A stretch of 64,000 nucleotides of DNA from a virus. Under the pieces are notes generated by a model, which saw only the letters and a program-made list of their open reading frames with translations, made no database searches and was not told the origin of the DNA. Positions 5,428 to 63,621 of this stretch are shown in pieces. The translations under genes and the position numbers were made by a program. The stretch spans positions 64,001 through 128,000 of the IMG/VR virus record IMGVR_UViG_3300017917_002228; one strand, written 5' to 3'. How positions within the stretch are numbered: the stretch's first letter is position 1; every line of letters begins with the position of its first letter.

Positions 5428-5428
5428 C

Positions 5429-5514: not shown

Positions 5515-5516
5515 AG

Positions 5517-5594
5517 TTCTTCTTGGGAAGAAGTAAAAAGCACCCTGGTCGGAGTGGTGCAGAGGCGAGTGCGACGCCTCTGCCTTTTATTTTT
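5517..5594 (+). other. Three-hairpin structured element ending in a terminator-like stem, upstream of the glycosylation island
   Basis: TTCTTC/GAAGAA, GCACC/GGTGC and GCAGAGGCG/CGCCTCTGC followed by a U-tract. Confidence 0.5.
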
Positions 5595-5601
5595 GAGGTA
5601 T

Positions 5602-7869: not shown

Positions 7870-7870
7870 T

Positions 7871-9344: not shown

Positions 9345-10138
9345 TGCAAGGTTATTTTTTTATTGCTCTGGGTGAACAATATATTGATGAATGTGTTATA
9401 TTAACACAAACGATTCGAAAACAGAACGATGAAAGGCCTGTAAGCCTTCTAATTCATCAAAGAGATATTGAATACGCTCAGCAGTATAATATGTTTGATA
9501 AGTTAGTAGTTTTTAATCCTAAAGATAAGCTTTGGGAAAACTGCACCACTAACTTTGAAAAATACTGTCTTTATCCTAGACTATATCTAAACTCATATAC
9601 ACCTTACGAAGAAAGCATTACAGTTGATTCTGACGTACTTTGTCAGTATAATGCAGATAAAGTATGGAAGTTTTGCTCACAATATACCAAGCCAGTTGTT
9701 ATGACTGGACGACATGATGATCCTTCTTGGCATTGGGGACATATCAACGAAGTATCAGAAGCATATGGTAAAAAAGTACCTCATGTTCATGGCGGGTTCT
9801 TCTATCTAAGAAAAGATCCATTTCTAGATACTTTTTTTGATTATTGTAAAGAAGTATTTTACAAGTATGATGACTACAACTGTAAGAGGATGTTTAGAGG
9901 TGGTAAAGTAGATGAGATTATATTTGCAATTGCTCATGCACACTTTGATATGCTACCTGTAGATTTTAGTCAGTTTCCAATTATGACATTCAACTACACT
10001 CCTGACATGGAAATACCTTCTAAGATACAAACTGAAGGTGGAAGAATAGAAGAGATGAAAGATTACATCCCATTTGTTCATATGTTTGATAAAATGGGTG
10101 GGCAAAATTACGAAACACTTCTTAGTAAAATTATATGA
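9344..10138 (+). CDS. GT-A fold (GT8-like) glycosyltransferase
   Basis: DSD motif, HGGFFY, DE..F, VHMF. Confidence 0.7.
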   Translation: MQGYFFIALGEQYIDECVILTQTIRKQNDERPVSLLIHQRDIEYAQQYNMFDKLVVFNPKDKLWENCTTNFEKYCLYPRLYLNSYTPYEESITVDSDVLCQYNADKVWKFCSQYTKPVVMTGRHDDPSWHWGHINEVSEAYGKKVPHVHGGFFYLRKDPFLDTFFDYCKEVFYKYDDYNCKRMFRGGKVDEIIFAIAHAHFDMLPVDFSQFPIMTFNYTPDMEIPSKIQTEGGRIEEMKDYIPFVHMFDKMGGQNYETLLSKII

Positions 10139-11232
10139 TTAAAAAATTTGATTATCTTATTGTAGGAGCCGGTATGTTCGGTTCCACATTTGCTCGTCTT
10201 GCTACAGATGAAGGTAAACGCTGTCTTATTATAGACAAGCGCAATCATATTGCTGGTAACTGTTATACAGAGAACAAAGACGGTATTAATATACACAAAT
10301 ACGGTCCTCATATCTTTCATACAAGTAATGATAAGATATGGAACTTTGTTAATCGCTTTGCTAAATTTAATAATTTTATTTTAAATCCTAAAGCGTATTA
10401 TGATGGTAAGCTATATTCACTACCATTTAATATGAATACATTTTATGAGATGTGGGGTACTATTAAACCTCAAGATGCTAAGTTTATAATAGAAAATCAA
10501 ACTAAAAAAATAGGCTCAGTTGACAATCTAGAAGATCATGCACTTAGCATGGTTGGTGAAGATATTTATAATAAGCTTATTAGAGGTTACACTAAGAAGC
10601 AGTGGATGAAAGATCCTAAAGAACTGCCTGCTTCTATTATTAAAAGACTACCTATACGTCTTACATACAACAATAACTACTTCAATGACACCTATCAGGG
10701 TATTCCAATAGGTGGTTATACTAAGATGTTTGAAAATATGCTTGAAGGTATTGAAGTAGTTTTAAATGAAGATTATTTTAATAAAAAATCAGAATGGGAT
10801 TCTATTGCTCATAAGGTAGTTTATACAGGATGTATAGATGAATTTTTTGATTACAAGTATGGTAAGCTGGAGTATAGAACGCTAGATTTTCAAACTCAAT
10901 TTTTAGAAGATACTGGTAACTTTCAAGGTTGTGCTATGGTCAACTATACAGAAGAAAGTGTACCTTACACACGTATTATTGAACATAAGCACTTTGAATT
11001 TGGTACACAACATTACACATACATTACACATGAATATCCAGTAAAGATGGAAGAAGGAAAGACGCCTTACTATCCCATTAATACTGATGCAAATCAAAAG
11101 ATTTTTCATCAATATGACTTGCTATCTAAACAATCTAATGTTATATTTGGTGGAAGACTAGCCAATTATCAATACTATGATATGCATCAAGTGATAGGAC
11201 AGGCTATGTCTATATACGAGTCCGCTAAATAA
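10135..11232 (+). CDS. glf: UDP-galactopyranose mutase
   Basis: IVGAGMFG, HKYGPHIFHT, YTKKQW, YQGIP.GGY, RIIEHKHF, GRLANYQYYDM. Confidence 0.97.
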   Translation: MIKKFDYLIVGAGMFGSTFARLATDEGKRCLIIDKRNHIAGNCYTENKDGINIHKYGPHIFHTSNDKIWNFVNRFAKFNNFILNPKAYYDGKLYSLPFNMNTFYEMWGTIKPQDAKFIIENQTKKIGSVDNLEDHALSMVGEDIYNKLIRGYTKKQWMKDPKELPASIIKRLPIRLTYNNNYFNDTYQGIPIGGYTKMFENMLEGIEVVLNEDYFNKKSEWDSIAHKVVYTGCIDEFFDYKYGKLEYRTLDFQTQFLEDTGNFQGCAMVNYTEESVPYTRIIEHKHFEFGTQHYTYITHEYPVKMEEGKTPYYPINTDANQKIFHQYDLLSKQSNVIFGGRLANYQYYDMHQVIGQAMSIYESAK

Positions 11233-11300
11233 ACAACCTGTTTTCTGAAACAGGGAAGCAGCCTGGATAGTATCCTTGCTGTCAACATTAAGGAGAAGTA

Positions 11301-11732
11301 ATGAAACAATTACTACATCTCCTAGTATTCTTTATGCTAGGAATGTGTGTGTTGTCTTCGAAGACTGTAGCAAATGATAAAATCCATTCACTTGTCACAC
11401 AGAAGGCAATAGAGCACAATGTGCCTCCTTCTTTTGCACACGGTGTTATAATTACGGAATCAAATTATAATCCTAATGCAAAAAATGGAAGCTCCATTGG
11501 CCTAGGGCAAATTCAATGTCGTACGGCTAAGGGAATCGGACTACAAGGGGATTGTAAAAGGTTATTTGACCCAGATACTAATCTCATGTATTCTATGAAA
11601 TACCTTAGAATGGCTCTTGATAGAGCGAAGGGAAATCAATGCTTTGCAGCTACCCTATACAATAGAGGATTAGGAGCTAAACCTGCTAATTCTAAGTATT
11701 GTAAAAAGGTATTCTCTAAAATAAAAACTTAG
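11301..11732 (+). CDS. SLT-family lytic transglycosylase with N-terminal signal/SAR segment (endolysin candidate)
   Basis: ESNYNPNA catalytic Glu, IGLGQI, YN.G; hydrophobic N-terminus. Confidence 0.88.
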   Translation: MKQLLHLLVFFMLGMCVLSSKTVANDKIHSLVTQKAIEHNVPPSFAHGVIITESNYNPNAKNGSSIGLGQIQCRTAKGIGLQGDCKRLFDPDTNLMYSMKYLRMALDRAKGNQCFAATLYNRGLGAKPANSKYCKKVFSKIKT

Positions 11733-11743
11733 TGATTATGAGT

Positions 11744-11817
11744 TGGGAGATCGTCTAATGGTAGGACAACGGACTTTGACTCCGTCAATCTAGGTTCGAG
11801 CCCTAGTCTCCCAGCCA
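11744..11817 (+). tRNA. tRNA-Gln(TTG)
   Basis: TGGGAGA/TCTCCCA acceptor, loop CTTTGAC, GCCA. Confidence 0.92.
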
Positions 11818-11876
11818 TAGTGATAACAAGGTAATAAATAATGTTTTACATCTATCCGGAAAGGTCTCAACCAATT

Positions 11877-12239
11877 ATGAACAACACATGGGGTTACCAT
11901 CTTCTTCTTGACTGCACAGCAGGTCATAAGGACGCTATCTCCTCAAAAGAAAATGTCTATAATTTTATTAAAGAACTAGTTCCAGCTATTGATATGGTCG
12001 CATTTGGTGAGCCTTGGATTGAGCATTTTGCTACTCATGATCCAGACAAGGCTGGTATTTCTCTCTGCCAAATGATCGAAACATCTAACATTACTGGTCA
12101 CTTTGTAGACAAGAATGGTAACTTCTATATTGATGTTTTTAGTTGCAAGCCTTTCGATAATGATGTAGTATTAGAAGTGGTCAGTAAGTACTTCAATCCA
12201 GAAAAGATTCGTGTACACTTTATTTCACGTGACGCATAA
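11877..12239 (+). CDS. speD: S-adenosylmethionine decarboxylase-like protein
   Basis: GYHLLLD, G.S..Q.IETSNITGH, YIDVFSCK.F. Confidence 0.85.
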   Translation: MNNTWGYHLLLDCTAGHKDAISSKENVYNFIKELVPAIDMVAFGEPWIEHFATHDPDKAGISLCQMIETSNITGHFVDKNGNFYIDVFSCKPFDNDVVLEVVSKYFNPEKIRVHFISRDA

Positions 12240-12245
12240 GTATAT

Positions 12246-12320
12246 CGCGGGGTAGCGCAGAGGTAGAGCACCTGGCTCATAATCAGGAGGTCGCCGGTTC
12301 AAATCCGGCCCCCGCAACCA
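12246..12320 (+). tRNA. tRNA-Met(CAT), initiator-like (C1:A72 mismatch)
   Basis: CGCGGGG/CCCCGCA acceptor, loop CTCATAA, ACCA. Confidence 0.9.
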
Positions 12321-12335
12321 ACTTTAGGATATATT

Positions 12336-13094
12336 ATGATTGAGCATGCATACATTCTTTATATTGATACTCCTGAAGCAACAAAATATATGGAAGAGTG
12401 TAAAGCTTCTTGTGAGCAATATGGCATTCCTGTTACACCCTTTATGGGTAAAAAACTTCCATGCACAGTAGAAGAAGTTAAGAATGATTGGGGATTTAAA
12501 GTAGACCCTGACGTTGAAATTAACAGTCGTGGTTTACCATGGATGGATAGCTGGTTTAAAGAGCAGCTCTGTTTAACTGGCCATATGAGTATATGGAAAA
12601 AGATTGCTACCGAGCACAAAGCAGCAGTAGCAGTATTTGAACATGATGCTATTGTGAAGCGAAACTTTAGTGATGTTCAAGTTCATGATATGGAATTTGT
12701 ATATCTAGGATATAGAGTAGATCATAGAGATGATTATGAATGTATCTCTGATCCGTTTATCAAAGTACCAGTTGATAAGTTTGAAGGTACACATGCCTAT
12801 GCTCTCACACCTCGTACAGCTGCAGCATGTTTGAATGCGCTAACTCAACTACCTGTATTACCATTAGGTACTTCTATCGATCATATGATGGGTGTTCGTA
12901 ATATGTTTAATCTACCTATGTGGGTAGTAGATCCAGCTCCAGTAGTAGCAGCTATTGAAGATAAGCAGTCTTTTACACAACCAGATCAAAAGACTGCTCG
13001 ATATAATATGGCACCTCCAGATGGGTTTCTGAAAGGGCTAAAAAATACAGATAAGTACATGTATGATCCTGAAAACAACTGGTTGGTATTCTGA
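12336..13094 (+). CDS. GT25-like glycosyltransferase
   Basis: C..GHMSIWKKI, VFEHDA, YLG, GTHAYALT..AA, ID. Confidence 0.8.
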   Translation: MIEHAYILYIDTPEATKYMEECKASCEQYGIPVTPFMGKKLPCTVEEVKNDWGFKVDPDVEINSRGLPWMDSWFKEQLCLTGHMSIWKKIATEHKAAVAVFEHDAIVKRNFSDVQVHDMEFVYLGYRVDHRDDYECISDPFIKVPVDKFEGTHAYALTPRTAAACLNALTQLPVLPLGTSIDHMMGVRNMFNLPMWVVDPAPVVAAIEDKQSFTQPDQKTARYNMAPPDGFLKGLKNTDKYMYDPENNWLVF

Positions 13095-13095
13095 T

Positions 13096-13278
13096 ATGGA
13101 TGATAATTACTCTGTAAACATGCTCAAAAAAGCAGCTTTTGTAGACGAAGTAAGAAATTATCTTGATATTATTATACAGAGTGCTCAGGATTATGATAAG
13201 GAAGTAGCTGATAAAGCTAAGATAGTCAAGCAATATCTCGAAGGTAGAATTGAGCACTTGACTAAAATATCAAAATAG
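13096..13278 (+). CDS. Small hypothetical protein
   Basis: ATG just after the GT25 stop; helical 60 aa. Confidence 0.6.
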   Translation: MDDNYSVNMLKKAAFVDEVRNYLDIIIQSAQDYDKEVADKAKIVKQYLEGRIEHLTKISK

Positions 13279-13286
13279 CCTATATT
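13258..13286 (+). promoter_or_regulatory. Sigma70-like promoter TTGACT-N17-TATATT
   Basis: Near-consensus boxes with 17 nt spacer upstream of the OMP gene. Confidence 0.6.
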
Positions 13287-13496
13287 ATCTTATAGAGAGG
13301 TGTTTTGTTATGAACATTGTGTTATGGACTAGATGTGATGTGCCTCCTCTATATCATACCGGTGATTGTTTTTATTCAATAGAACAAATGATCATCGAAA
13401 ACGAAATGCACTATCGTGCATATTCTCTGCGGGAAGATGTGATTGTATGGATTCCCGCACAACACATACTATTATTAACAACATTAGGAGAACAAA

Positions 13497-14015
13497 ATGA
13501 TTCGCAATACACTAGTCGCATTCCTCGCTATCGCCGGGGTTTCCTCAGCCGTGGCAGGAGATCTACCAAATCGGAAGCAGGCTCCAGCCGCTCCAGTAGT
13601 ATCCAGCGATAGTGGCTTCTATGCCGGCGTCCGTGGTGGCGTTGTCTTTACTGACAATATTACAATCGGTGCTGGTGCGGGTTATCAGTTTAACCGTTTT
13701 ATTCGTGCAGAAGCTAACTACGACTACCTTAATAACGACAATAATAAGACAAATGGTCTTTCGTCGTCATTAGCAACTGGTAATATTATTGGTCAATATC
13801 CTATTGCAGTTTGGGGATTGACTCCTTATACGCTCGCTGGTATCGGCTATCGTTGGAGCGATGCCAAAAACGAGCCAGTCTGGAACGTCGGTGCGGGTGT
13901 CCGCTACGATGTAACGAAGAACGTAGAGCTTGATGCTCGTTACCGCTACGTTTCTTCTTTCCAGAACGAACGTCAGGGTAATGCATTTACCCTCGGACTT
14001 AACTATAAGTTCTAA
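13497..14015 (+). CDS. Eight-stranded outer-membrane beta-barrel, RopB/Omp25-like
   Basis: Signal peptide, AGDLPNRKQAP motif, GFYAG..GG, PYTLAGIGY, AGVRYD, C-terminal YKF. Confidence 0.9.
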   Translation: MIRNTLVAFLAIAGVSSAVAGDLPNRKQAPAAPVVSSDSGFYAGVRGGVVFTDNITIGAGAGYQFNRFIRAEANYDYLNNDNNKTNGLSSSLATGNIIGQYPIAVWGLTPYTLAGIGYRWSDAKNEPVWNVGAGVRYDVTKNVELDARYRYVSSFQNERQGNAFTLGLNYKF

Positions 14016-14022
14016 TATTACT

Positions 14023-14046
14023 GAGGCGGCTTCGGCCGCCTCTTTT
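14023..14046 (+). terminator. Intrinsic terminator GAGGCGGC-TTCG-GCCGCCTC-TTTT
   Basis: 8 bp stem, cUUCGg tetraloop, U-tract. Confidence 0.92.
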
Positions 14047-14049
14047 AAC

Positions 14050-14126
14050 GGTCGCTTAGCTCAGCTGGACAGAGCAACAGCCTTCTAAGCTGTGGGTCAA
14101 TGGTTCGAATCCATTAGCGATCACCA
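14050..14126 (+). tRNA. tRNA-Arg(TCT)
   Basis: ACAGC-CTTCTAA-GCTGT, CCA. Confidence 0.94.
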
Positions 14127-14131
14127 ATTTT

Positions 14132-14216
14132 GTCCGCGTGGTGGAATTGGTAGACACAAGGGACTTAAAATCCCTCGCCATAGTGCATGCCGGTTCGAGT
14201 CCGGCCGCGGATACCA
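14132..14216 (+). tRNA. tRNA-Leu(TAA)
   Basis: AGGGA-CTTAAAA-TCCCT, long variable arm, CCA. Confidence 0.93.
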
Positions 14217-28141: not shown

Positions 28142-30268
28142 ATGCCTGTATTTTATCCTGGTAATATTTTAAGCTCATCTGAACCTAATCCAGGCTCTGG
28201 TATGTGGAGTATGACTACTCACATGCAGAAACGTAGATCAGGTACATGGCCTGCTACAACTCCTGCAGTAGTACGTGATAGTGAGTTTGAGTATACTACA
28301 TTACTATTAAAAGCAATAGGTGCAAATACAGCTCAAAATGCTACATTTTTAGATAGTTCATCATATAATCTATCAGTAACAAGAAACGGTGACGTTACTC
28401 AAGGTGCATTTTCACCTTATGGTATTGATGATGGAGAATGGTCAGCTTATTTTGATGGTACAGGTGATTATCTGCTAACAAATACATCAGATTTATTAGC
28501 ATTTGGTACTGGAGATTATACTGTTGAATTTTGGGTTTATGGATTATCTTTTGCTTCAGCTCCATACATATACTCGTCTACTAAAGGTGTGTCAACTTGG
28601 TGGCCCAGGTATGCAATTCAAATTGCTGCAAACGGTACACTTAATCTCTATAGTCGCGATTCTACAGGTGAAAGCACTCAAAGTACTTCAGGTACCTTAT
28701 TAGTAAATAGGTGGTATCATGTAGCAGTTTCAAGATCAGGTGGAACTACAAAAGCTTTTCTAGATGGTACTCAAGTATATAGTGGATTTAAAGCAAATGA
28801 TAATATAAACGTTAATCAACGTTTAGAAATAGGAGCTGCATTCGCTTTTAATAGTAATTATTTTAACGGTTATATATCTAACATAAGAGTTATAAAAGGT
28901 ACAGCGTTATATACCACAGGTTTTACACCTACAACTTCACCTTTAACTGCAATATCGGATACCTCAATTCTTATATGTCAAAGTAATCGTTTTATAGACA
29001 AATCTACTAATAACCTTACTGTTACTAAAAACGGTGATGCTAAAATATCAGCATTTACTGCGTTCAATCAAAGCAGTTCTTACTCTGCTGCTACTTATGG
29101 TGGCTCAGCTTACTTTGATGGAACTGGTGATTATTTAACAGCAACTTATAGTACTACCAATCATGATTGGTGGACTTCTGATTATACTATAGAAGCATGG
29201 ATATATTTAACCACATTAACAGGATGGTCGTTCAATGATGCTACGAGAGATATTCCTACCTTAGTGGGAAATATGAACGTAGGAAACAATACTGATTACT
29301 GGTCGTTTGGTCCAATAGCTGGTGGTACTGTAAGATTTTATTACTTTAATGGTGCTGGTAATATAGTAACATCTACTGAAACCGTTAAGTTAGGTCAATG
29401 GAATCATATTGCCATGACTAAAACTAGCTCAGGAGTAACCATATTTGTAAACGGTATTGCTTCAACCGTCACTGCTATATCCGGAACACCTCAATCTTCT
29501 GCAGCAACAGCATTAACTGTAGGAGGTTATAGCAGTACGGTTATTAATGGTTATGTCTCTAATTTAAGAATAGTAAAGGGTACTGCAGTATATTCAGGTA
29601 ACTTTACTCCTCCTACTGCTCCGTTAACTGCAATTACTAACACTTCTCTCTTACTTAATGCATCAAACGCTGGTATTGTTGATGCAAGTAGAAAGTTTCC
29701 ATTATATGTTGTAGGAGATGCAAAGGTCTCTACAAACGTATTTAAATATGATAAGTCAGTAGCTTTTGATGGTACTGGAGATTATGTATTAGTTCCAGCT
29801 GCTTCATATACCGATGAGTTTTTATTTGGTTCAGGAAACTTTACTGTAGAAACCTGGGTTAGATTTACTGCACTTGGCCAAAATAGATGTTTAGTAGATG
29901 CTTGGGTATCCGGTCAATCAGCATCGTGGCAACTATACTACAGCAATTCTAGTCAAAAAATATTATGGTATGTTGGAAGTTCTGCACTATTAACCAGTAC
30001 CACTACTCCGTTAGTTGATACATGGTATCATGTAGCAGTCACTAGAAGTGGTACCACTTCTAGAATGTTTATCAACGGGGTGCTAGAATCAACAGAACCT
30101 TCTATTTCGCCTAACTATAACTACAAAGCACCTCTTGCTTTAGGAGTTCAGTATTCTACCTTAACTAACTACTTAAACGGTTATATGGAAGATACAAGAA
30201 TAACCAGAGGTGTTGCACGCTATACAGGTGCATTTACCCCACCTACAACTTCACTACCTACTGCATAA
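28142..30268 (+). CDS. Triple LamG/ConA-like domain tip protein
   Basis: Three repeats of YFDGTGDY..FG.GD(F/Y)TVE.W ... W.H.A..R ... GY.S..R..KG.A.Y. Confidence 0.9.
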   Translation: MPVFYPGNILSSSEPNPGSGMWSMTTHMQKRRSGTWPATTPAVVRDSEFEYTTLLLKAIGANTAQNATFLDSSSYNLSVTRNGDVTQGAFSPYGIDDGEWSAYFDGTGDYLLTNTSDLLAFGTGDYTVEFWVYGLSFASAPYIYSSTKGVSTWWPRYAIQIAANGTLNLYSRDSTGESTQSTSGTLLVNRWYHVAVSRSGGTTKAFLDGTQVYSGFKANDNINVNQRLEIGAAFAFNSNYFNGYISNIRVIKGTALYTTGFTPTTSPLTAISDTSILICQSNRFIDKSTNNLTVTKNGDAKISAFTAFNQSSSYSAATYGGSAYFDGTGDYLTATYSTTNHDWWTSDYTIEAWIYLTTLTGWSFNDATRDIPTLVGNMNVGNNTDYWSFGPIAGGTVRFYYFNGAGNIVTSTETVKLGQWNHIAMTKTSSGVTIFVNGIASTVTAISGTPQSSAATALTVGGYSSTVINGYVSNLRIVKGTAVYSGNFTPPTAPLTAITNTSLLLNASNAGIVDASRKFPLYVVGDAKVSTNVFKYDKSVAFDGTGDYVLVPAASYTDEFLFGSGNFTVETWVRFTALGQNRCLVDAWVSGQSASWQLYYSNSSQKILWYVGSSALLTSTTTPLVDTWYHVAVTRSGTTSRMFINGVLESTEPSISPNYNYKAPLALGVQYSTLTNYLNGYMEDTRITRGVARYTGAFTPPTTSLPTA

Positions 30269-34320: not shown

Positions 34321-36501
34321 ATGCGTTATAGACTTAATGGCGGAGTCATTGGACCAGTAAACGATCCTAATCTTTACACTGCCCCTGGCATGTGGAGTAT
34401 GACTGATGTTTACAATGGTGGCCTATCTATGTTGTGGCCTGGCCGTTTTTCTATAGAAGCTAATACCAATCTTTATTCTATAATGTACCATAATGATGGT
34501 GCAAATACAGCTACAGTAGGCACCTTTACTGATAGCTCAACAAATAACCTTACAATTAATAGAGTAGGTAACGCTTCTCAAGGGTCAGCTAGCCCATGGT
34601 CTGTTAAAGAAGGTTATTGGGGTGCTGCTTTTGTTAATAGAAGTTATATTAATTCAGTAACTGGTTCAGGAATGTATGCATATGTTCCTAACGGTACTCA
34701 ATTTGATATGGGTACTGGTGACTTTACATTAGAATGCTGGATTAATCCTTCATCTTTACCCGCTGCTGATACTTGGCCTACAAATTGGTTTAACCATTCG
34801 TCATTAATAGGAAGAGGTACACCTAACGCTGGTGATGGTTATAATCTTATTTTAGGCGCTACCAAGCTTATATTTCAGAATAACGATGTGCTGATAGCTT
34901 CAGGCAACCATAACATGTCTGTTGCTAGATGGTATCATGTTGCAGCATGTAGATCAAGCGGCACATTAAGATTGTTTGTTAACGGTGTTACTGTAGCTAA
35001 CGTTGCTTTCTCTTCTTCTGTGGGTGCTGGATCTAACTTTTATATTGGATGTGAGACTGGACAAGGTGCTTTTTTTGATGGCTTAATGAGTAACATAAGA
35101 GTTACTAAGTCGGCTCTTTATACTGCTGATTTTACTCCATCTACTACACCATTAACTAAAGTAACCAATACTTCACTTCTTACTTTCCAAAGCAATAGAT
35201 TTGTTGATAACAGCGATAATGGGGCAGCAGTAACATACGTAAATAACTGCGGTGCTACTCCTATGAGCCCGTTCTTACCAGACTGGAAATATACTCCATC
35301 TATACATGGAGGAGCGGCATATTTAGATGGTGATGGTGATAATTTTACTGTAGATGATAATGCAGTGTTTGAGTTTGGTAGCGGAGCGTTTAGCATAGAG
35401 TGTTGGATATATCCTACTTCTCTCAAAGGCTATCAGGGTATATTGGGTAAAACTGGTACAGTCGACCAGCAAGGATGGGTTCTTACATTTGAAACTAATA
35501 ACAGAGTTTATTTTTATGCAGGTAACGGTTCTTGGACTGTTGCTATGGATTCTGGTTGGACACCTCCACCTTATCAATGGTCTCATATTGTAGTAACTAG
35601 AGATACAAGCAACGTCTGGCGCATATTCTCTAACGGAATATTAAGAGCATCTACTACCAATAGCGTAACCTTATCTGATTATGGTGGTGCATTCTATATT
35701 GGTAAATGGCCTTATTTTCCAAGCTACTCTACTAACAAAGATTTTGGACCTGGATTCTTTACCGGGGTAAGAGTAGTAAAAGGTGGAATGATATCTGCTT
35801 ATAACACTGCTAGTACTACTGCAGGCACTAAAATTTACGACGTTCCTACAACTCCTCCATCTATTAATGATGGAGTAACAGCAGGTAGTATTGTCTTACT
35901 AGCAGGATTTACAGGTGCACAAGTATATGATGCTACAGGAAGATCAGCTGTATCCCCTATTAATGATGCTAAACTAATAGCTGGACAAGCTAAGTTTGGT
36001 ACCGCATCTATGTATTTTGACGGTACTACCGACTACTATAATCTTCTAACATATCCAGGTGTACTTCCTAACGGTAATGATCTTTATACTATTGAAATGT
36101 GGATAAAACCATTAGGTTATGGTGCTTATACTATGTTTGGTTTTAACGGAGGTGGTACTAATAACTTAGCTAATACATTTAGAATGACTACTACCGGTCT
36201 AATGAACTATTGGTGGGGTAATGATTTGTCTGCTACTGTTGCAGGCTTAACTGATGGTAACTGGCATCATGTAGTAGCTCAATTTGATGGTACTACAAGA
36301 GCTATTTACGTTGATGGTACTAGAGTAGCATCTGATACTCCTGGAACTTCTCATAACGTACCATTTGCTACCACTTATACTATAGGTAGAGGCTATAGTA
36401 CAGAAGACTTCTTTGGTTATATTGACGAGTTGGTTATTCATAGATATGCCAAATATTCTGGAACATCTTATACTGTACCAACAAGGGCTTATGACATCTA
36501 A
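34321..36501 (+). CDS. Triple LamG/ConA-like domain tip protein
   Basis: FTLECW, WYHVAA.R, KFGTASMYFDGT, WHHVV, GYIDE. Confidence 0.9.
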   Translation: MRYRLNGGVIGPVNDPNLYTAPGMWSMTDVYNGGLSMLWPGRFSIEANTNLYSIMYHNDGANTATVGTFTDSSTNNLTINRVGNASQGSASPWSVKEGYWGAAFVNRSYINSVTGSGMYAYVPNGTQFDMGTGDFTLECWINPSSLPAADTWPTNWFNHSSLIGRGTPNAGDGYNLILGATKLIFQNNDVLIASGNHNMSVARWYHVAACRSSGTLRLFVNGVTVANVAFSSSVGAGSNFYIGCETGQGAFFDGLMSNIRVTKSALYTADFTPSTTPLTKVTNTSLLTFQSNRFVDNSDNGAAVTYVNNCGATPMSPFLPDWKYTPSIHGGAAYLDGDGDNFTVDDNAVFEFGSGAFSIECWIYPTSLKGYQGILGKTGTVDQQGWVLTFETNNRVYFYAGNGSWTVAMDSGWTPPPYQWSHIVVTRDTSNVWRIFSNGILRASTTNSVTLSDYGGAFYIGKWPYFPSYSTNKDFGPGFFTGVRVVKGGMISAYNTASTTAGTKIYDVPTTPPSINDGVTAGSIVLLAGFTGAQVYDATGRSAVSPINDAKLIAGQAKFGTASMYFDGTTDYYNLLTYPGVLPNGNDLYTIEMWIKPLGYGAYTMFGFNGGGTNNLANTFRMTTTGLMNYWWGNDLSATVAGLTDGNWHHVVAQFDGTTRAIYVDGTRVASDTPGTSHNVPFATTYTIGRGYSTEDFFGYIDELVIHRYAKYSGTSYTVPTRAYDI

Positions 36502-37900: not shown

Positions 37901-38263
37901 ATGGCAGCCCCTAATCTTTTAAATTTAACAACAGCAATTGGTGTAACAACATTTGCAAACGTTACACAGTCAGCGGCAAACGTAGTAACTAATCCTGCAG
38001 CAAGTAACAAAGCATTTAGGCTAAACAGTCTTATGTTTGTAAGCACTGGTGTTAACACATCTGTGACAGCTTATATTAACAGTCCTGGAAGAACACCTTC
38101 AAATACATTTGTGGTAGATGAGACTGTTCTAGTATCTAATGCTATATTTGTTGCATTAGATAAGAATACAGTAATATATTTACAAGAAGGTGAATCTCTA
38201 TTTGCTGTCGCAGCTGCAAATAATGCTGCTCATGCTATATTGACTTATGAGGATCTTTCATAA
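37901..38263 (+). CDS. Fibre adaptor protein, cassette 5
   Basis: MAAPNLLNLTT...NSL...IYLQEGE...TYE. Confidence 0.8.
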   Translation: MAAPNLLNLTTAIGVTTFANVTQSAANVVTNPAASNKAFRLNSLMFVSTGVNTSVTAYINSPGRTPSNTFVVDETVLVSNAIFVALDKNTVIYLQEGESLFAVAAANNAAHAILTYEDLS

Positions 38264-40347
38264 TGCCTAATATGGGTTTTAGAGGCATATATGCTGGTGC
38301 TAATAGTGCAATAGGCGGTAGAATTATATCTGGCGATTTAATTCCTGCAATACGAGGTAATTTTTATCCTACCTATGCTATAGGATTTACACCTTCTGAT
38401 ACTAATTTTAACTACACAACACTATTACTTAAAGCTGTAGGCTCTAATACTCAACAAAACTATACTTTCCTAGATTCTTCTACTAATAATTTTACAGTCA
38501 CACGAAACGGTGATGTTACCCAAGGCTCATTTTCTCCTTACGGTTTAGATGACGGGTCATGGTCAGTTTACTTTGATGGTTCAGGAGATTATTTAAGCAA
38601 CGCTTCTGCTGCAGCAGCTAATTTTGGTACCGGTGATTTTACATTTGAATGTTGGGTATATTTTACAGATATGGCTTCCGCATCTTATTATCAAATATTT
38701 GCAGCATCTAATTCTACCGGTGGTTTTCAAATTTATAAAAATACAGGATCTTCTAACTTAGTTTGGGATATTAATTCTACAAGTACAGATTTAATAGCAA
38801 CTAATATTGTTGCAAATAGATGGTATCATATAGCAGTTACTAGAAGCGGCTCGACTGTAAGAACATTTTTAGATGGTGCATTGACTTATACGTATACAAA
38901 CAGTTTTAATTTTACTATTACTGGTGCATATATAGGAGCATTTCCCACTGGAGCTAGCTATTTTCCAGGCTATATAAGCAATTTGAGAATAGTTAAAGGG
39001 ACAGCAGTTTATACTTCTGCTTTTACACCTTCTACAACAGGTCTAACAGCTATTTCCGGTACGTCACTCTTAACATGTCAAAGCAATCGTTTCAGGGATA
39101 GTTCAACAAATAACTTTACTGTTACTCGAAACGGCGACACTAAAATATCTGCTATGACTCCATTTAATCAAAATGCTCCGTATACTACAACAACATATGG
39201 CGGATCAGCATTTTTTGATGGAACTGGAGATTATTTAAGCTGTGCTGCAAACACTGCATTTGCATTTGGCACTGGTGATTTTACAGTAGAAGCTTGGATT
39301 ATGAGAACTGGAGGTTCGGGTAATCAACCTATCATGCAAAGTGATGCAATCGGATCTTCTACAAATGATAAATGGTGGTTTGCTGTTGCAAGTGGAGGTT
39401 TATTTTTTGGTACACATGCAAGTGGTGGATTTAACGTAGTAACTACTACTACATTTAACGTTAACGAATGGTATCATGTAGCGGTTACTCGTTCTTCTGG
39501 TACTATGAGAATGTTTGTTAACGGTGCAAATACAGCATTTACTACTACCGGTACACCTAGCGGATATAGCTTATCACAAAATGGTCTAGTAATTGGTGGT
39601 ATGAGTACTCCTAGTTATTGGACGGGCTACATAAGTGATGCTCGTGTAATAAAAGGAACAGCGCTGTATACTAATAGTTTTACTATTCCTACTGCTCCTT
39701 TAACAGCAGTAGCTAATACCTCTTTATTATTTAATGCTTCAAATGCTGGTATAGTTGATGCAAGTAGAAAGTTTAATTTATACACAGATGGTGATGTTAA
39801 AGTAGCCACAAACATATTTAAATATGATAAATCTTTTGCATATGATGGTACTGGTGATATAGTTAAAGTTTTATCTCCTCCTGAAGAATTAAATCTAACT
39901 ACTGCTACATTTACTTTAGAGGCATGGGTATACGTATCATCACTGGCAGCAATTAGAGGTATAGCCGGTTGTGCAACTACTGCTATTGTTAATAATGCTA
40001 GTATTGATTGGGGCTTTAGAATTAATACTAATGGTACTGTATCTTTTCTAACATGTTCTAGTACTGCTATTTTACAGGTAACCTCTACAGCTACAGTACC
40101 TTTAAATACATGGGTTCATGTTGCTGTAGTAAGAGAAGATGCTACAGCAAACGTTTACGTTAACGGTGTTGGAGTATCAGGTACTGTACATGCAACTACA
40201 AATTCAAATAGAGGTGTATTTACTGTAGGGTCAATATCAGATATTAATCCTATGTTAGGTTATATTGAAGATTTACGACTAACTAAAAATTTCAAGCGAT
40301 ATACTGCTAACTTTACTCCTCCTACAGCTTCTCTACCTACACGATAA
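38263..40347 (+). CDS. Triple LamG/ConA-like domain tip protein, paralogue of 28142
   Basis: Same scaffold motifs YTTLLLKA.G.NT.QN, NASNAGIVDASRKF, FKYDKS. Confidence 0.9.
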   Translation: MPNMGFRGIYAGANSAIGGRIISGDLIPAIRGNFYPTYAIGFTPSDTNFNYTTLLLKAVGSNTQQNYTFLDSSTNNFTVTRNGDVTQGSFSPYGLDDGSWSVYFDGSGDYLSNASAAAANFGTGDFTFECWVYFTDMASASYYQIFAASNSTGGFQIYKNTGSSNLVWDINSTSTDLIATNIVANRWYHIAVTRSGSTVRTFLDGALTYTYTNSFNFTITGAYIGAFPTGASYFPGYISNLRIVKGTAVYTSAFTPSTTGLTAISGTSLLTCQSNRFRDSSTNNFTVTRNGDTKISAMTPFNQNAPYTTTTYGGSAFFDGTGDYLSCAANTAFAFGTGDFTVEAWIMRTGGSGNQPIMQSDAIGSSTNDKWWFAVASGGLFFGTHASGGFNVVTTTTFNVNEWYHVAVTRSSGTMRMFVNGANTAFTTTGTPSGYSLSQNGLVIGGMSTPSYWTGYISDARVIKGTALYTNSFTIPTAPLTAVANTSLLFNASNAGIVDASRKFNLYTDGDVKVATNIFKYDKSFAYDGTGDIVKVLSPPEELNLTTATFTLEAWVYVSSLAAIRGIAGCATTAIVNNASIDWGFRINTNGTVSFLTCSSTAILQVTSTATVPLNTWVHVAVVREDATANVYVNGVGVSGTVHATTNSNRGVFTVGSISDINPMLGYIEDLRLTKNFKRYTANFTPPTASLPTR

Positions 40348-41380: not shown

Positions 41381-44113
41381 ATGTCAGAACCATATATGAA
41401 TAGACCATTAAGTCCAGGAAGAAAAATGGAAAGTCCAAATAAGACTAAAGATAAAAAGCTTAAGACCACTAAGGTCAAGGATGAGATTTCTGAAAAAGGT
41501 CGTACCATAGATGGTAACAGACCTGATCAGATAATTATTAATCCAGTACAAGAAGCTGTTGAAAAGCGTGCAGTATTTGCATATGGACGTTTTAACCCAC
41601 CTACAACTGGACATGAAAAGCTTATTCATAAGGTAGAATCAGTAGCAAAAGAACAAGGCGCGCAAGCCCATATTGTAGCATCTCATTCTGAAGGTAAGTC
41701 TAAAGATCCACTCCCTAAAGAAAAGAAGGTTGAGTATCTTAAAAAAGTAGCCGCTAAAGGCACTCACGTATCTCATTCAACAAGCGAACATCCTACTCTT
41801 CTACATCAGTTATCAAAGTTACATAAAAGCGGTGTAGAACATGTTACTCTAGTTTCAGATAAAGAAAAAGAGTTCGGTGATCTAGTACACAAGTATAATG
41901 GTGTAGAAGGAAGACACGGACATTTTAATTTTAAAACTATCAAGTCAGTATCGTCTGGTATGAGAGATCCAGATGCAGAAGGCACTGAAGGCATCTCTGG
42001 TACTAAGATGAGAGCTCATGCTCGTTCTGGTAATATGGAAGAATTTAAAAAAGGTCTTCCTACAGCTCTCCATAAGCATGCAGAAGAAATAGCCAAACAT
42101 ATTAGATCAGTAAAAGAAGATATTGATGAAGAGTTTGAAGATTTCTTAGATGAGTCTATCTCAATGGCTTCTCGTCTCAAAAAAGCATCATCAATGAGAA
42201 GATATGAGGCTAAGTTACAAGCAGCCCGTAAACGTTCTATGATGAGAAGAGCTGGCACTAAGGTAATTACTCAACGTGCTACTAAACTCGCTATTGGTAA
42301 GATGAAGACTAGATTTGCTGGTGGAAGAGATCCTAGCACTTTATCTGCAATGGAAAAACAAAGAATAGAAGATATAGTTCATAAGCGTAAACAGGCTGTT
42401 CGCCGTTTAGCTATGAGATTGATTCCTACAGTTCGTAAGACAGAAGCTCAACGTCTTATGAAACATATTCATGTTCAAGAAGAAACATATACTGTTGATA
42501 TGGATCTTATGAATGAATTATATGATGTTGCTCTAGAAGAAGTTAACTCGGTAGGAGCTGGTGGTTTTAGAGGTATGGGTAACGTAACTGGTAATGTTGG
42601 TATGGAAGGATCTCCAGTCAACAATTATACTTTATTTAACGCTGATAACGCAGATACCAGAAGTGATGAGCTTAAAAAAATAAAGAAGATGTTCCATGAT
42701 AAGCATCATGCTTCTAAAGCTGTCAAAGAAGAGTTAGAAGAAAACTTTATGGATGGTAAGAATCCAGAAGATAAAGGTGATATGGCTCGCCATGGTCTAA
42801 AAGGTAAGTCAATATCTCAGCTTAAGAAGATTAGATCTTCTGATGATGCTTCTCCTAGAAAGAAGCAACTAGCTCACTGGTATATTAATATGCACAAGGA
42901 AGAAATAGATCGTGCAAATACACATGCACGAGATGAAGGCACTTCTTCTTTAGTTGACATTTATGCTAAGGATACACCAGGACAGGGTAAAAAGCAAGTT
43001 AAAGAAGATACTGATAGAACTGCTTTTGTTTATATGGCTCCTCAGCCTCCTAAAGAGATATTTGCCCAGTGTGGTTCTTGTGCGCACTTTATGCCTGAAT
43101 CACAAAGATGTACTTTGTTTGGTAAAGACGATAAGGTAGTAGCAGAAGCATCTTGTACTCTTTATGCACATGGTGTTCCATCAGACGAACAAGAGATTTT
43201 AGAATCTACTACACCAAAAGAAGCTGGTTACGTAACTGGCAAGGTACGTTGTGAGAATTGCTCTTGGTTTGATGAAGAAAAAAGTACTTGTGGTTTATTC
43301 CAATCACTCAATAAGAAGATGAAAGATACATTTAAGCTTCAAGAAAAAGTAGACAAGTACGGATGCTGTAACGGTTTTTATCGTAAAGAAGAAGAGATGT
43401 CTGAAGATATTAACGTTCTATTCCAAGAAGCAGTCAAGGCTACTGACAAAGAAGCTATTCCACGCTCTGGTCAACCAAGAAAATCTATTGACTACGTAGT
43501 ACGTTCACAGGTTAATAGATTTGTTTCTGATAAGCCTTATCGTCAACAAGCTCTGCAAAAACAAAAGATTGACGAAGAGGTAATCGAAGAAGAAAAGCCA
43601 GTATGGGAAAAAGAGCCTCCTAAAGATGGTGGTAGTAAATTATCCCCAGCAGCAAAAGCAAAAGCAAAGGCTCGTGCAAAGGCAGCAGGTCGTCCTTATC
43701 CAAACTTAGTAGACAATATGTGGGCTGCTAAGAATGAAGAGGTAGAAGATGAAGGCTGTCCTCTTCTAGATGAAGATTATGAAGAAGAACTTCATGAGTA
43801 TATCGAAGAAGATTTTATTCCAACAGGTACCGAGCTCTATGAGAGCTGGGGAGAGCTTACAGAAGAAGCAGTAAAGAATGGTAAGAGAGTTCAGCTTAAT
43901 AAACCATTCCTAACACCTGGTGGTCCAAAGAAGAGAGCTGTTTATGTTAGACATCCAGAAACTGGCAACATTGTTAAAGTTGGTTTTGGTGATCCTAACA
44001 TGAGAATTAAGAAATCTAATCCTGAAAGACGTAAGTCATTTAGAGCTAGACATAATTGTGAAAATCCTGGACCTAAACATAAGGCCAGATATTGGTCATG
44101 TAAAGCATGGTAA
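41381..44113 (+). CDS. Multi-module protein with cytidylyltransferase-like (HxGH) domain; putative packaged polyprotein
   Basis: GRFNPPTTGHEKL and ISGTKMR; further modules separated by Glu-rich spacers; two CxxC..C..C units; C-terminal NKPF..PGGPKK...ARYWSC module. Confidence 0.8.
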   Translation: MSEPYMNRPLSPGRKMESPNKTKDKKLKTTKVKDEISEKGRTIDGNRPDQIIINPVQEAVEKRAVFAYGRFNPPTTGHEKLIHKVESVAKEQGAQAHIVASHSEGKSKDPLPKEKKVEYLKKVAAKGTHVSHSTSEHPTLLHQLSKLHKSGVEHVTLVSDKEKEFGDLVHKYNGVEGRHGHFNFKTIKSVSSGMRDPDAEGTEGISGTKMRAHARSGNMEEFKKGLPTALHKHAEEIAKHIRSVKEDIDEEFEDFLDESISMASRLKKASSMRRYEAKLQAARKRSMMRRAGTKVITQRATKLAIGKMKTRFAGGRDPSTLSAMEKQRIEDIVHKRKQAVRRLAMRLIPTVRKTEAQRLMKHIHVQEETYTVDMDLMNELYDVALEEVNSVGAGGFRGMGNVTGNVGMEGSPVNNYTLFNADNADTRSDELKKIKKMFHDKHHASKAVKEELEENFMDGKNPEDKGDMARHGLKGKSISQLKKIRSSDDASPRKKQLAHWYINMHKEEIDRANTHARDEGTSSLVDIYAKDTPGQGKKQVKEDTDRTAFVYMAPQPPKEIFAQCGSCAHFMPESQRCTLFGKDDKVVAEASCTLYAHGVPSDEQEILESTTPKEAGYVTGKVRCENCSWFDEEKSTCGLFQSLNKKMKDTFKLQEKVDKYGCCNGFYRKEEEMSEDINVLFQEAVKATDKEAIPRSGQPRKSIDYVVRSQVNRFVSDKPYRQQALQKQKIDEEVIEEEKPVWEKEPPKDGGSKLSPAAKAKAKARAKAAGRPYPNLVDNMWAAKNEEVEDEGCPLLDEDYEEELHEYIEEDFIPTGTELYESWGELTEEAVKNGKRVQLNKPFLTPGGPKKRAVYVRHPETGNIVKVGFGDPNMRIKKSNPERRKSFRARHNCENPGPKHKARYWSCKAW

Positions 44114-60822: not shown

Positions 60823-61487
60823 AAATATTTAACCACTTATCTCCAAAAGAAATACCTCAACTAGAACAAGTCAATACTGATTCAGGTCGTTATTATAAAT
60901 CACCAACAGGCGTATTATACCCTTCAGTAACTACTGTAACAGGTTTGATGAATGTCGACTCAATCAAAAAGTGGCGTAAAGCCGTCGGTGAGGAAGCTGC
61001 GAATGCGATCTCTTCGAAAGCAGCTCGACGCGGAACACGAATTCACTCTATTTGCGAAGACTACCTCAATAATAAACTTGATACTAGCAAGCATTCTATT
61101 ATTGATCTTGATAATTTCAATTCTTTGAAAGAGTATATGGATGAGCATATTGACAACATTCACCTCCAAGAAACAAGACTCTACTCAGACTTCTTGCAGA
61201 TGGCAGGAACTGTGGACTGTATTGCCGAGTATGCAGGACGCTTATCTATCATCGATTTTAAAACAGCAAGAAAAGCTAAAAATAGAGACTACATACAAAA
61301 TTACTTTTGTCAGGCAACTGCATACGCAATAATGTATGAAGAACTAACTGGAATACCAGTACCTAATATAGTGATTATGATTTGTGTTGACGATGATTAC
61401 CCGCAGATATTCACAGATAAAAGAGACTACCATGTTAAACCTCTCCTAGAGATTAGGAAAAAATATAAGGAAATCTACAATGTTTAG
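60819..61487 (+). CDS. PD-(D/E)xK (Cas4/RecB-like) exonuclease
   Basis: YPSVTTV, RGTRIH, AGTVDCIA, IDFKT, Q..AY. Confidence 0.9.
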   Translation: MKIFNHLSPKEIPQLEQVNTDSGRYYKSPTGVLYPSVTTVTGLMNVDSIKKWRKAVGEEAANAISSKAARRGTRIHSICEDYLNNKLDTSKHSIIDLDNFNSLKEYMDEHIDNIHLQETRLYSDFLQMAGTVDCIAEYAGRLSIIDFKTARKAKNRDYIQNYFCQATAYAIMYEELTGIPVPNIVIMICVDDDYPQIFTDKRDYHVKPLLEIRKKYKEIYNV

Positions 61488-61818
61488 AGCAATGTTAAGT
61501 GCATTGTTCGTAATGATTTCAAGTGCTGCTTATGCACAGCAAAAACAACCTATATGTATGCCGCTTCCTGAGATGATGACATTAATGAATCAAACAGGAT
61601 TTTCTCATCTACTATCTACACACTCAGTAGAAGATAAAAAAGGTACAATCGTGTTTGTTAATTCAGATGATAAAGTTACTGCTATTGTAGTATTTGATAT
61701 GTCTAGCGACGACCCTAAAACAGCAGGTGCTTGTGTAGCTTCTATCCAAAAAAATCTAAGATTTAATCGTGATGGTTTAGATGTTATTTCTAAAAGGGAA
61801 CTAGGTATTAGAGTATGA
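61480..61818 (+). CDS. Exported protein with signal peptide and two Cys
   Basis: AAYA-Q cleavage site; PICM ... ACV. Confidence 0.7.
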   Translation: MFRAMLSALFVMISSAAYAQQKQPICMPLPEMMTLMNQTGFSHLLSTHSVEDKKGTIVFVNSDDKVTAIVVFDMSSDDPKTAGACVASIQKNLRFNRDGLDVISKRELGIRV

Positions 61819-62168
61819 AAGTTATCATTGCTGGGTCGCGTAATATCAATAGCCCGGGTCCTGTTGGCAGGGCTATTGAATCTTCTAATTTTGAAATAAC
61901 AGAGATCGTATCTGGTAATGCAAGAGGTGTAGATTCTCTTGCAGAAAACTATGCTGGAAGAAAAGGTATTCCTACTAAACTCTTTCCAGCTGACTGGGAT
62001 AAATATGGTAAGCCGGCTGGTGCAATTCGTAACCAGCAAATGGCACAATATGCAGATGCTTTGATTGCAGTATGGGATGGGCAATCAAAAGGTACTAAGA
62101 TGATGATTCAGATGATGAACAAGCAAAACAAGCCTGTTCATCTTTATTTGGTAGATAATAATGACTAA
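61815..62168 (+). CDS. SLOG-superfamily (YspA-like) protein
   Basis: IIAGSR, SGNARGVD, ADW.KYG..AG.IRN, WDG.S.GT. Confidence 0.88.
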   Translation: MKVIIAGSRNINSPGPVGRAIESSNFEITEIVSGNARGVDSLAENYAGRKGIPTKLFPADWDKYGKPAGAIRNQQMAQYADALIAVWDGQSKGTKMMIQMMNKQNKPVHLYLVDNND

Positions 62169-62607
62169 GAATGTTTTAATCTGGTGGCTATTCTTTTGCT
62201 TGCAAGCCTTTGGCGCAGCAATAGCATACTACTATGGCATCTTTGGAATTCTTCAGCTTGCTGATCCAACATACATTTCTTTTTGTATATTAATACTGCA
62301 CGTATTTACAGTATTATGGATCGGTCTTCTTACCTATAATAAAAACAATAACAATAATGAGATACTATGGTTTATTTCTGAGACTCAGCTAGGTCTTGGA
62401 ATGCTTGGCACTCTTATAGGGTTTATTATTATGTTCTCAGGTGTATTCGGTCACGAAATTACTCCTGAAAACCTTAAAGATGCTATAGCTTCTATTGCAG
62501 TCGGAGTCAGTACTGCAATATGGACCACTCTGGTTGGTCTTGCCTCTGGATTGATTTTGAAAACTCTAATCATCAATCTAGAAAGAACTAATGGTAGACA
62601 GAAGTAG
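62161..62607 (+). CDS. MotA/TolQ/ExbB proton-channel family protein
   Basis: Four TM segments; LGMLGTLIGF ... GVSTAIWTTLVGL signature. Confidence 0.85.
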   Translation: MTKNVLIWWLFFCLQAFGAAIAYYYGIFGILQLADPTYISFCILILHVFTVLWIGLLTYNKNNNNNEILWFISETQLGLGMLGTLIGFIIMFSGVFGHEITPENLKDAIASIAVGVSTAIWTTLVGLASGLILKTLIINLERTNGRQK

Positions 62608-63178
62608 ATACGCAACAACTCTATCATTTATAGATTTTTTATTTAATCTTGTCATTGCTCTGACAGCTCTTTTCTTATTGGCCATTCTTCTTATTAATCC
62701 ACCTAAGCAAGAAACGACGCAAAAAAGAGAAGCAGAATATTTTATAGCTATTAAATGGCAAGATAATAATAATAATGATGTTGATCTATGGGTCACTGAT
62801 GGTGAAAACACTGTAAACTTTATTACAAGACAGCAATCAAATATGTCTTTAGATAGAGATGATGTTGGTCCAGATGATCCTATTACACACACACATTTTC
62901 TCCCTGCTAACGAAGAAATAGTAACTATCAGATCTAAAAGTAGAGCTGTATATACTGCTAATATTCACCTCTACAATTTGAGAGATAAAAATAATCTACC
63001 TATGGTAGCATGGGCACTGATAAATGCTCGTACAAACAAAATAGTTGCAACTGGTGCAAAAGTACTTCAATTTCCAGGTCAAGAAGTTACATTATTCAGA
63101 GTCTATATTAATGGTTCAGGAGAAGTAGATATGATTGATAAAGAAATAGATTATCCTTTTGTAAATGGTAAAAAATGA
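62591..63178 (+). CDS. MotB/TolR/ExbD-like single-TM partner with periplasmic domain
   Basis: Intramembrane Asp in SFIDFLFNL; W....DVDLW ... LDRDD.G ... E periplasmic domain. Confidence 0.7.
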   Translation: MVDRSRYATTLSFIDFLFNLVIALTALFLLAILLINPPKQETTQKREAEYFIAIKWQDNNNNDVDLWVTDGENTVNFITRQQSNMSLDRDDVGPDDPITHTHFLPANEEIVTIRSKSRAVYTANIHLYNLRDKNNLPMVAWALINARTNKIVATGAKVLQFPGQEVTLFRVYINGSGEVDMIDKEIDYPFVNGKK

Positions 63179-63621
63179 CAACGTTTTATATTTTACTACT
63201 TCTTCTCTCTATTCCTATTATAACAATGCTTGTGATGCTATCACAGGATAAAAAATGGCGAAAATTTATCTTTATTCTTATACCATTAGTTCTTATACTG
63301 GTATTTAAATTATGGTATGCGATTGAATATATAAAGACAGCTCCTACCGAAAAAATGCCAGACAAATATACTTTTATTCATAGCGTTGAAAAGCAAAAGA
63401 AACACATCTACATATGGGCAGTAGAAGATGGTATGGAATATCCAATCACTATAGTTATTCCATGGACAGAGAAAGCATCAAAAGAAGTAGAGAAGGCTAA
63501 AAGAGGTGTAAGAGAAGGCCGTCGTATAGTCAGGGATAAAACTCAAGACAGAGAAAACGGCACTCCTACAGATGAATTTAAATTTTATGAGTTTCAATTA
63601 AGCAAACAATATGTGAAGTGA
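63175..63621 (+). CDS. Two-TM membrane protein, third member of the motor module
   Basis: ATGA-coupled; two N-terminal TMs, PT...P....IYIW soluble domain. Confidence 0.7.
   Translation: MTTFYILLLLLSIPIITMLVMLSQDKKWRKFIFILIPLVLILVFKLWYAIEYIKTAPTEKMPDKYTFIHSVEKQKKHIYIWAVEDGMEYPITIVIPWTEKASKEVEKAKRGVREGRRIVRDKTQDRENGTPTDEFKFYEFQLSKQYVK

Follow-up and report, generated by a model that had tools for sequence, protein, structure and literature searches.

A three-gene phage cassette with a minimal MotA/ExbB-type channel protein: a candidate Ton/Tol-like motor acting on the cell envelope

Why would a phage carry what looks like a membrane motor of its own? The question is raised by three overlapping genes, here called p1, p2 and p3, at positions 62161-63621 of a 64,000-nucleotide stretch of phage DNA (the window, i.e. 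bases 64001-128000 of the complete 160,495-bp phage record IMGVR_UViG_3300017917_002228 in IMG/VR, which has direct terminal repeats). The 5:2 ion-driven rotary motors, which include MotAB, ExbBD, TolQR, ZorAB and GldLM, power flagella, Ton/Tol transport, gliding and Zorya defence, and a motor of this kind, or a mimic of one, had been proposed for the three genes in a reading of the sequence alone (the original prediction). Our analysis suggests, with a probability of roughly 0.6, that the trio is an autonomous Ton/Tol-like ion-driven motor of the inner membrane that acts on the envelope; on the same reading it would be the most reduced known form of the MotA/ExbB superfamily of 5:2 ion-driven motors.

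The listing of open reading frames (ORFs) and a reading of the sequence confirmed three overlapping membrane genes, all on the plus strand: p1 at 62161-62607, p2 at 62591-63178 and p3 at 63175-63621. The overlap is 17 nucleotides between p1 and p2 and 4 nucleotides (ATGA) between p2 and p3, and at its other end p1 shares 8 nucleotides with the SLOG/YspA-like gene upstream. When compared with a relative of 82% identity, the ratio of nonsynonymous to synonymous substitution rates (dN/dS) was 0.04 for p1 and 0.09 for p2. Both genes are under purifying selection, and because the ratios are low they are real genes and not chance ORFs. For p3 the comparison with the same relative gave a dN of 0.15 with dS saturated. 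None of the three proteins had a family in PHROGs.

The assignment of the trio to a motor superfamily starts from p1 (62161..62607, 148 amino acids, aa), a minimal channel subunit with four transmembrane (TM) segments. It matched the Pfam family MotA_ExbB (PF01618) at 32.5 bits against a cut-off of 22.9 (32.3 bits in the scan of the phage's own genome), and a profile built from 57 relatives matched MotA (8gqy, E = 3e-4), ZorA (8vvn), PomA, TolQ and ExbB in the PDB, the matches always covering the last two helices. The TM segments were placed by hydropathy at residues 5-23, 39-57, 77-95 and 120-138, and the charge distribution fits a MotA-like topology with both termini in the cytoplasm (N-in/C-in). 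The conserved channel core comprises TM3, the following loop and TM4 (residues 75-138, 62383..62574, plus strand), in which G80, G83, T84, G87, T122, T123 and G126 were nearly invariant in alignments of 48-57 relatives. Of the channel threonines, T84 was kept in 47, T122 in 45 and T123 in all of 48 relatives, and D35 in the first periplasmic loop was nearly invariant too. The motifs from which a channel signature of the ExbB/TolQ/MotA type had been read are present, LGLGMLGT in TM3 and STAIWTTLVGL in TM4, and their Gly and Thr residues align with the MotA TM3 and TM4 motifs GMIGTLIG and ALITTLYG. By these profile and motif matches p1 is a member of the MotA/ExbB/TolQ superfamily. It also has many relatives of its own: an exhaustive search of 1.84 billion cluster representatives gave 874 of them at E ≤ 1e-3, counted among 50% clusters and nearly all 110-240 aa in length.

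The near lack of a cytoplasmic domain, which had been part of the same claim, was seen as well, with only about 17 residues between TM2 and TM3 and an end 10 residues past TM4. In the A subunits of 5:2 motors either the torque interface is expanded (flagellar motors) or there is a condensed cytoplasmic domain of two to three helices (ExbB, TolQ and AglR) (PMC12505986), and p1 has neither. The NCBIfam models for PomA, MotP and ZorA scored 10-14 bits on p1 against cut-offs of 100-700, and its best matches in PADLOC were weak ones to ZorA2 models (E = 1e-6 to 3e-5).

The second protein, p2 (62591..63178, plus strand, 195 aa), has a single TM helix with a membrane Asp followed by a periplasmic domain. 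The helix was placed at residues 17-35 by hydropathy and 8-35 in an AlphaFold2 (AF2) model built from 51 sequences (predicted local distance difference test, pLDDT, 85), in which a short low-confidence linker leads to a beta-sandwich at residues 50-183. The Asp of the FIDFLF motif, which the original prediction had singled out, is D15 (GAT codon at 62633..62635 in the sequence as read, plus strand) within SFIDFLF. Counted from the start of the modelled TM helix it stands 7 residues in, which is the cytoplasmic half, and it was invariant in 49/49 and 51/51 relatives. Arg residues precede the helix, and an Asp near the helix start with Arg residues on its N-terminal side is an arrangement that we take to be that of ExbD, TolR and MotB.

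The further claim that p2 is itself of the ExbD/TolR/MotB type had to be given up, since no family match was found and the ectodomain has another fold. There was no match to ExbD/TolR (PF02472) in Pfam or NCBIfam, none to OmpA or MotB_plug among the Pfam families when the 51 relatives were scanned as well, and none to any Pfam, NCBIfam or PHROG family for p2, with Pfam TerD (PF02342) included. The modelled fold is instead that of TerD (residues 46-183, 62726..63139, plus strand, as judged from the AF2 model, structure searches and conservation). In an all-against-all structural search the TerD structures 2qz7_B (Z = 9.8 over 130 residues) and 2kxt (Z = 9.7 over 127 residues) ranked at the top, with the next match at 5.7; Foldseek against the PDB retrieved TerD at E = 4e-4 to 2e-3, and the viral models agreed. 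The residues W56, D63, D65, L87, D90, D91, G93, N107, E109 and R114 of the sandwich were invariant, and their acidic cluster, whose motifs recall the Ca2+ sites of TerD, may be a site of that kind. The likeness is one of fold; no significant Pfam TerD match was obtained, and TerD is soluble and cytoplasmic whereas the p2 domain is periplasmic and has a stator-type TM helix as its anchor. DUF2135 (YfaP) was matched weakly in 4/51 relatives (best E = 0.004). A weak match to the PADLOC model PDC-M64B in 2/51 members (E = 1e-3) was rejected as noise.

The third protein, p3 (63175..63621, plus strand, 148 aa), was characterized from its AF2 model, hydropathy and synteny as a hairpin of two TM helices that leads into a small periplasmic domain; a linker and a C-terminal motif complete the protein. 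Hydropathy placed the TM segments at residues 4-22 and 32-50, and the AF2 model (pLDDT 84) contained helices at 2-23 and 26-54, a small domain (64-113) built of a beta-sheet and a helix, and a tail of low confidence, which is the 2-TM protein that had been expected. Because the short loop between the TM segments is positively charged, an N-out/C-out topology is predicted. The family alignment revealed a linker that is rich in Gly, Glu and Lys and varies greatly in length, and then a conserved end motif, F/Y-x-L-P-P-x-x-L-P-x-K, that is found in many members and is divergent in this phage. Neither Pfam nor PHROG held a known family for p3, and fold searches returned TM-hairpin look-alikes only, with no match to TonB or TolA, a negative that decides little by itself.

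A survey of synteny bore out that the three genes belong together. Around 135 phage loci were retrieved overall, in a first set of 58 and an independent second set of 79. A scan of IMG/VR with a p1 pattern gave 53 loci, which together with others made up the 58 loci carrying both p1 and p2. These two genes were adjacent in 57/58 loci, one extra gene standing between them in the remaining one (L004), and p3 was found by profile iteration in 56/58, the exceptions being a contig end and a locus with an extra gene. In the second set all three genes were present in 75/79 loci; three of the exceptions were cut by the contig end, and in one locus (L099) a p3-like ORF was not seen in the remaining 850 bp. 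As a neighbour of p2, p3 was found in 56 of the 58 loci and in 78 of the 79. The independent scan behind the second set, made with a p2 pattern, matched at least 354 viral IMG/VR contigs. The contigs that bear the trio range from 4 kb to 342 kb, and clustering of the flanking ORFs gave no family besides the trio in more than nine of the clustered loci. Even in the 82%-identical relative the trio has another position than here, with a SegE-type endonuclease region on one side and a baseplate gene on the other. Given that the co-occurrence is nearly constant while the flanks vary, the trio is a mobile cassette.

The cassette is not restricted to uncultured phages. A tblastn search with p1 against 50,697 phage records gave no match, and the cultured carriers were found through p2 alone, whose relatives among these records were confined to 29 Rhizobium/Sinorhizobium phage records. 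They belong to phages of 59-69 kb, myophages of 152-171 kb and the temperate phage 16-3, in which the trio is p038, p040 and p042; all are annotated as hypothetical. In the neighbourhood of the 16-3 trio no lysis genes were found, and nothing was recognised beyond a trypsin-like protease and a NADAR-like gene. Relatives of p2 were also present on seven Azospirillum chromids (mutual identity 98.5-100%), one of which bears two complete trios at a distance of about 24 kb. Of these two, one is flanked by a tetratricopeptide repeat (TPR)-methyltransferase gene and a purU-like gene, a setting that is not prophage-like and that argues for an autonomous cellular function. The module is thus common to phages and Alphaproteobacteria and not phage-specific. 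A scan of GTDB-species genomes with a narrow p1 pattern hit one contig of a metagenome-assembled genome (MAG) only, which undercounts bacteria given the Azospirillum copies. That single match is the Fischerella MAG contig JANZYY010000114.1 (L059/L146; 11.4 kb, low coverage), on which p1 and p2 are encoded; it may come from a phage and have been placed in the cyanobacterial MAG by binning.

A lead on function came from loci in which p3 is longer. In 10/79 loci of the second set p3 has about 300 aa, and 6/6 of those tested carry a full-length Phage_lysozyme domain (E = 1e-45 to 1e-50). This GH24 lysozyme is attached straight after the conserved C-terminal motif of p3 and, as judged from its sequence, keeps the EG...D...T-I-G-Y-G-H context of active GH24 enzymes. 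Because p3 is fused to a lysozyme in this one lineage, the periplasmic location of its C-terminus is settled, and the fusion also points to the cell wall as the site of p3 action. With the lysozyme profile no separate copy was detected near any other trio, and no p3 fusions above 413 aa were found, which is weak evidence.

How these parts might work together is best explained as follows. The p1 protein, with four TM helices, channel threonines and no cytoplasmic domain, would form a ring around p2, which would be the central axle (the expected stoichiometry being 5:2) and take the proton on D15. The TerD-like, probably Ca2+-binding head of p2 would sit in the periplasm and may grip the wall. 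The p3 protein would dock on the ring via its TM hairpin, its flexible linker and end motif reaching into the periplasm. Ion flow would then move p1 relative to p2, presumably by rotation, and thereby pull or move p3 in the way that ExbBD acts on TonB and TolQR on TolA. Work would be done on the cell wall or the outer envelope and not in the cytoplasm, and the phage would most likely employ the trio on the envelope during infection, to remodel it or to hold it.

This proposal draws on what the trio has in common with ExbB-ExbD-TonB and TolQ-TolR-TolA, namely three translationally coupled genes, a channel protein whose single-TM partner carries an Asp near the cytoplasmic end of its helix, a third membrane-anchored protein with an extended periplasmic linker, and an output toward the envelope and not the cytoplasm. 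The inner-membrane motors of Ton and Tol-Pal are classed as 'generic ion transporters' in PMC12505986. There are also clear differences. ExbB and TolQ have three TM segments and a cytoplasmic domain of two to three helices, whereas p1 has four TM segments and about 17 cytoplasmic residues, and p2 has a TerD-like beta-sandwich in place of the ExbD/TolR fold. The role of TonB or TolA that the original prediction had given to the third gene is plausible in view of the TM anchor, the variable linker, the end motif and the lysozyme fusion of p3, but homology does not come with it: p3 has two TM segments and not a single anchor, no SHLS-type motif was seen in it, and it has no TonB_C or TolA domain. 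In the trio as a whole no Pfam or NCBIfam match was found to ExbD, TolR, TonB or TolA.

The flagellar stators MotAB and PomAB (8gqy, 8brd/8bri, 6ykm) are close in other respects, since 8gqy was the best PDB match of p1 and since the four-TM N-in/C-in topology, the Gly and Thr residues of TM3 and TM4 and the Asp in the TM helix of the partner are alike. However, p1 lacks the torque-generating cytoplasmic domain between TM2 and TM3 and scores far from the stator models of NCBIfam (PomA, 14.3 bits vs 341; MotP, 13 bits vs 373), p2 has neither a plug nor an OmpA-like peptidoglycan-binding domain, and the trio has an obligatory third protein and is borne by a phage.

Several points weigh against a Ton/Tol-like motor. 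To our knowledge there is no solved precedent for a ring without a cytoplasmic domain. Neither p2 nor p3 has a sequence relationship to its supposed counterparts (ExbD/TolR/MotB and TonB/TolA, respectively), and the soluble domain of p3 had no structural match in the fold searches. The ten loci with a lysozyme fusion are all closely related and represent one lineage only, and a GH24 lysozyme was not found anywhere in the genome of this phage. Finally, the trio sits amid DNA-metabolism genes without a nearby T4-type late motif, so that its surroundings give no clue on timing or role.

The fusion could be taken further than this. In a stronger version the trio would be the smallest natural ion-driven rotary motor and would be coupled to the wall, with p1 turning around a wall-anchored p2 and dragging p3, whose periplasmic arm would carry or recruit a payload active on peptidoglycan (a lysozyme in the one phage lineage). 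If so, phages and Alphaproteobacteria would use the proton motive force (PMF) for mechanical work on peptidoglycan, such as lysis or egress assisted by the motor or a local remodelling of the wall. We know of no 5:2 motor that does such work, and regard this version as tentative and rather doubtful.

The same fusion might instead reflect control of lysis or of a wall hydrolase by the PMF, in which the trio would be mainly a sensor or latch and not a generator of force. In that case p3, together with the lysozyme where one is fused, would be held inactive at the membrane as long as this is energised, and freed on depolarisation in the manner of signal-arrest-release (SAR) endolysins. It is compatible with this that the lysozyme fused to p3 in ten phage loci is a complete GH24 enzyme in which the E/D/T catalytic motif context is kept, that p3 is tethered to the membrane by two TM helices and that the module is frequent in both lytic and temperate phages. 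Most p3 proteins, however, have no enzyme and the fusion is limited to a single lineage, no lysis genes were found beside the trio here or in 16-3, and the bacterial chromid copies in their housekeeping context are hard to reconcile with a lysis function. We therefore consider such a latch unlikely.

Interference with host motors is still less probable. Here p1, p2 or both would mix or compete with host TolQR, ExbBD or MotAB, which would jam the Tol/Ton-dependent entry of superinfecting phages and of colicins or stop motility. The channel core is indeed common to p1, TolQ, ExbB and MotA, and phages often exclude competitors that enter through Tol or Ton. On the other hand, the trio brings its own Asp partner and a third protein, which are co-inherited with p1 in a module under purifying selection; p1 is distant from every host family (10-14 bits against NCBIfam cut-offs of 100-700), and bacteria have kept two chromosomal copies. 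A mimic would also have no need of an invariant proton-accepting Asp. The dominant-negative mimic considered in the original prediction hence fits poorly with a self-contained and selected trio that also occurs in an ordinary bacterial chromosomal context, and none of the uses suggested with it (superinfection exclusion, jamming of TonB, nutrient import or the countering of Zorya) gained support here.

That ZorA2 models are the best PADLOC matches of p1 and that ZorA chains are among its PDB matches would be accounted for if the phage carried a defence module akin to Zorya, or a decoy against it. ZorA-ZorB (8vvn, 8qyd) resembles the trio as a remote MotA/ExbB member with weak profile matches and in the setting of phage-bacterium conflict. 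The resemblance ends there, as p1 lacks the long cytoplasmic tail of ZorA and p2 the peptidoglycan-binding ZorB-type domain, no effector like ZorC, ZorD or ZorE is conserved nearby, the NCBIfam score for ZorA is far under the cut-offs, and only 2/51 p2 relatives were touched by PADLOC, and weakly; this explanation is very improbable. Equally hard to credit is that the trio simply conducts or leaks ions, as a depolarising, holin-like or ion-homeostasis device without mechanical output. Small proteins without a cytoplasmic domain and conserved Asp and Thr residues that could just line a pore may seem sufficient for this, but a leak would have no use for conserved periplasmic domains on two partners and leaves the variable linker, the conserved end motif and the lysozyme fusion unexplained.

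If the Ton/Tol-like motor is the correct reading, the trio would add a family in which a ring subunit of 148 aa without a cytoplasmic domain would be a minimal object for the question of how ion flow is turned into movement. The module is widespread, in jumbo, T4-like and temperate phages as well as in bacterial replicons, with neither a PHROG nor a name. In full-text literature searches no paper came up that describes a MotA/ExbB module encoded by phages or linked to TerD/DUF2135. The lysozyme fusion directs the search for its function toward the cell wall, and the existence of cultured carriers (Rhizobium phage 16-3, the RHph phages and Azospirillum) makes a role in infection directly testable.

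The phage itself is labelled marine-type, with a genome of about 160 kb. That the window is phage DNA, as first proposed, agrees with the tRNA, structural-gene and whole-record data. Its GC content is approximately 34-42% and its genes include baseplate-wedge, tail-fibre-like and ribonucleotide reductase genes, and in a close relative gp59- and gp32-type genes lie immediately downstream of the trio. Based on this content (tRNAs, baseplate and tail genes and ribonucleotide reductase) and on gp59/gp32 in the close relative, the source is a T4-like myophage. The trio belongs to an unbroken, tightly packed run of plus-strand genes that starts at a FEN/RNase H-like gene at 57312 and also includes genes for PhoH (identified as the homologue of a syntenic PhoH gene of 249 aa in the close relative), an FkbM methyltransferase and a PD-(D/E)XK nuclease. 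Directly upstream of the trio are the genes for a 112-aa protein with a signal-peptide-like N-terminus (61480-61818) and, between it and p1, for a 117-aa SLOG/YspA (YAcAr) protein (61815-62168); both are syntenic in the close relative and are not kept with the trio elsewhere. The T4 late promoter motif TATAAATA was not found near the trio and was not enriched in the window, and scans for sigma-70 promoters and terminators around the trio gave chance-level matches only.

Some further observations concern the surroundings of the trio in other loci. In a few of them unrelated cargo lies between p2 and p3 (L014, 5053-6128; L051, 4424-5290), consisting of an orotidine monophosphate (OMP) decarboxylase gene with a 132-aa gene in one lineage and a TET-associated glycosyltransferase (TAGT)-like gene in another. 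In two unrelated groups of rhizobiophages a trypsin-like, probably periplasmic serine protease is encoded no more than 1-3 kb from the trio (L060, 1747-2646, which is p036 of 16-3; L001, 5456-6148, in RHph_N3_13), which may be a coincidence. One trio contig (L005, 1288-3327) encodes a 679-aa protein with CHASE2 and guanylate/adenylate cyclase domains beside a FecR-like gene.

Elsewhere in the window, 14 tRNA genes, all on the plus strand and with small ORFs in between, lie at 2610-14216 (Lys, Asn, Thr, two Gly, two Leu, Pro, two Ser, Trp, Gln, Met and Arg). Three paralogues of about 700 aa (28142-30268, 34321-36501 and 38263-40347) have up to three internal repeats each and all match PHROGs 3545, 24074 and 13163 (baseplate wedge or virion structural protein). 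The gene at 41381-44113 encodes a 910-aa protein in which a cytidyltransferase-like N-terminal region is combined with two more PHROG-matching pieces at the C-terminal side.

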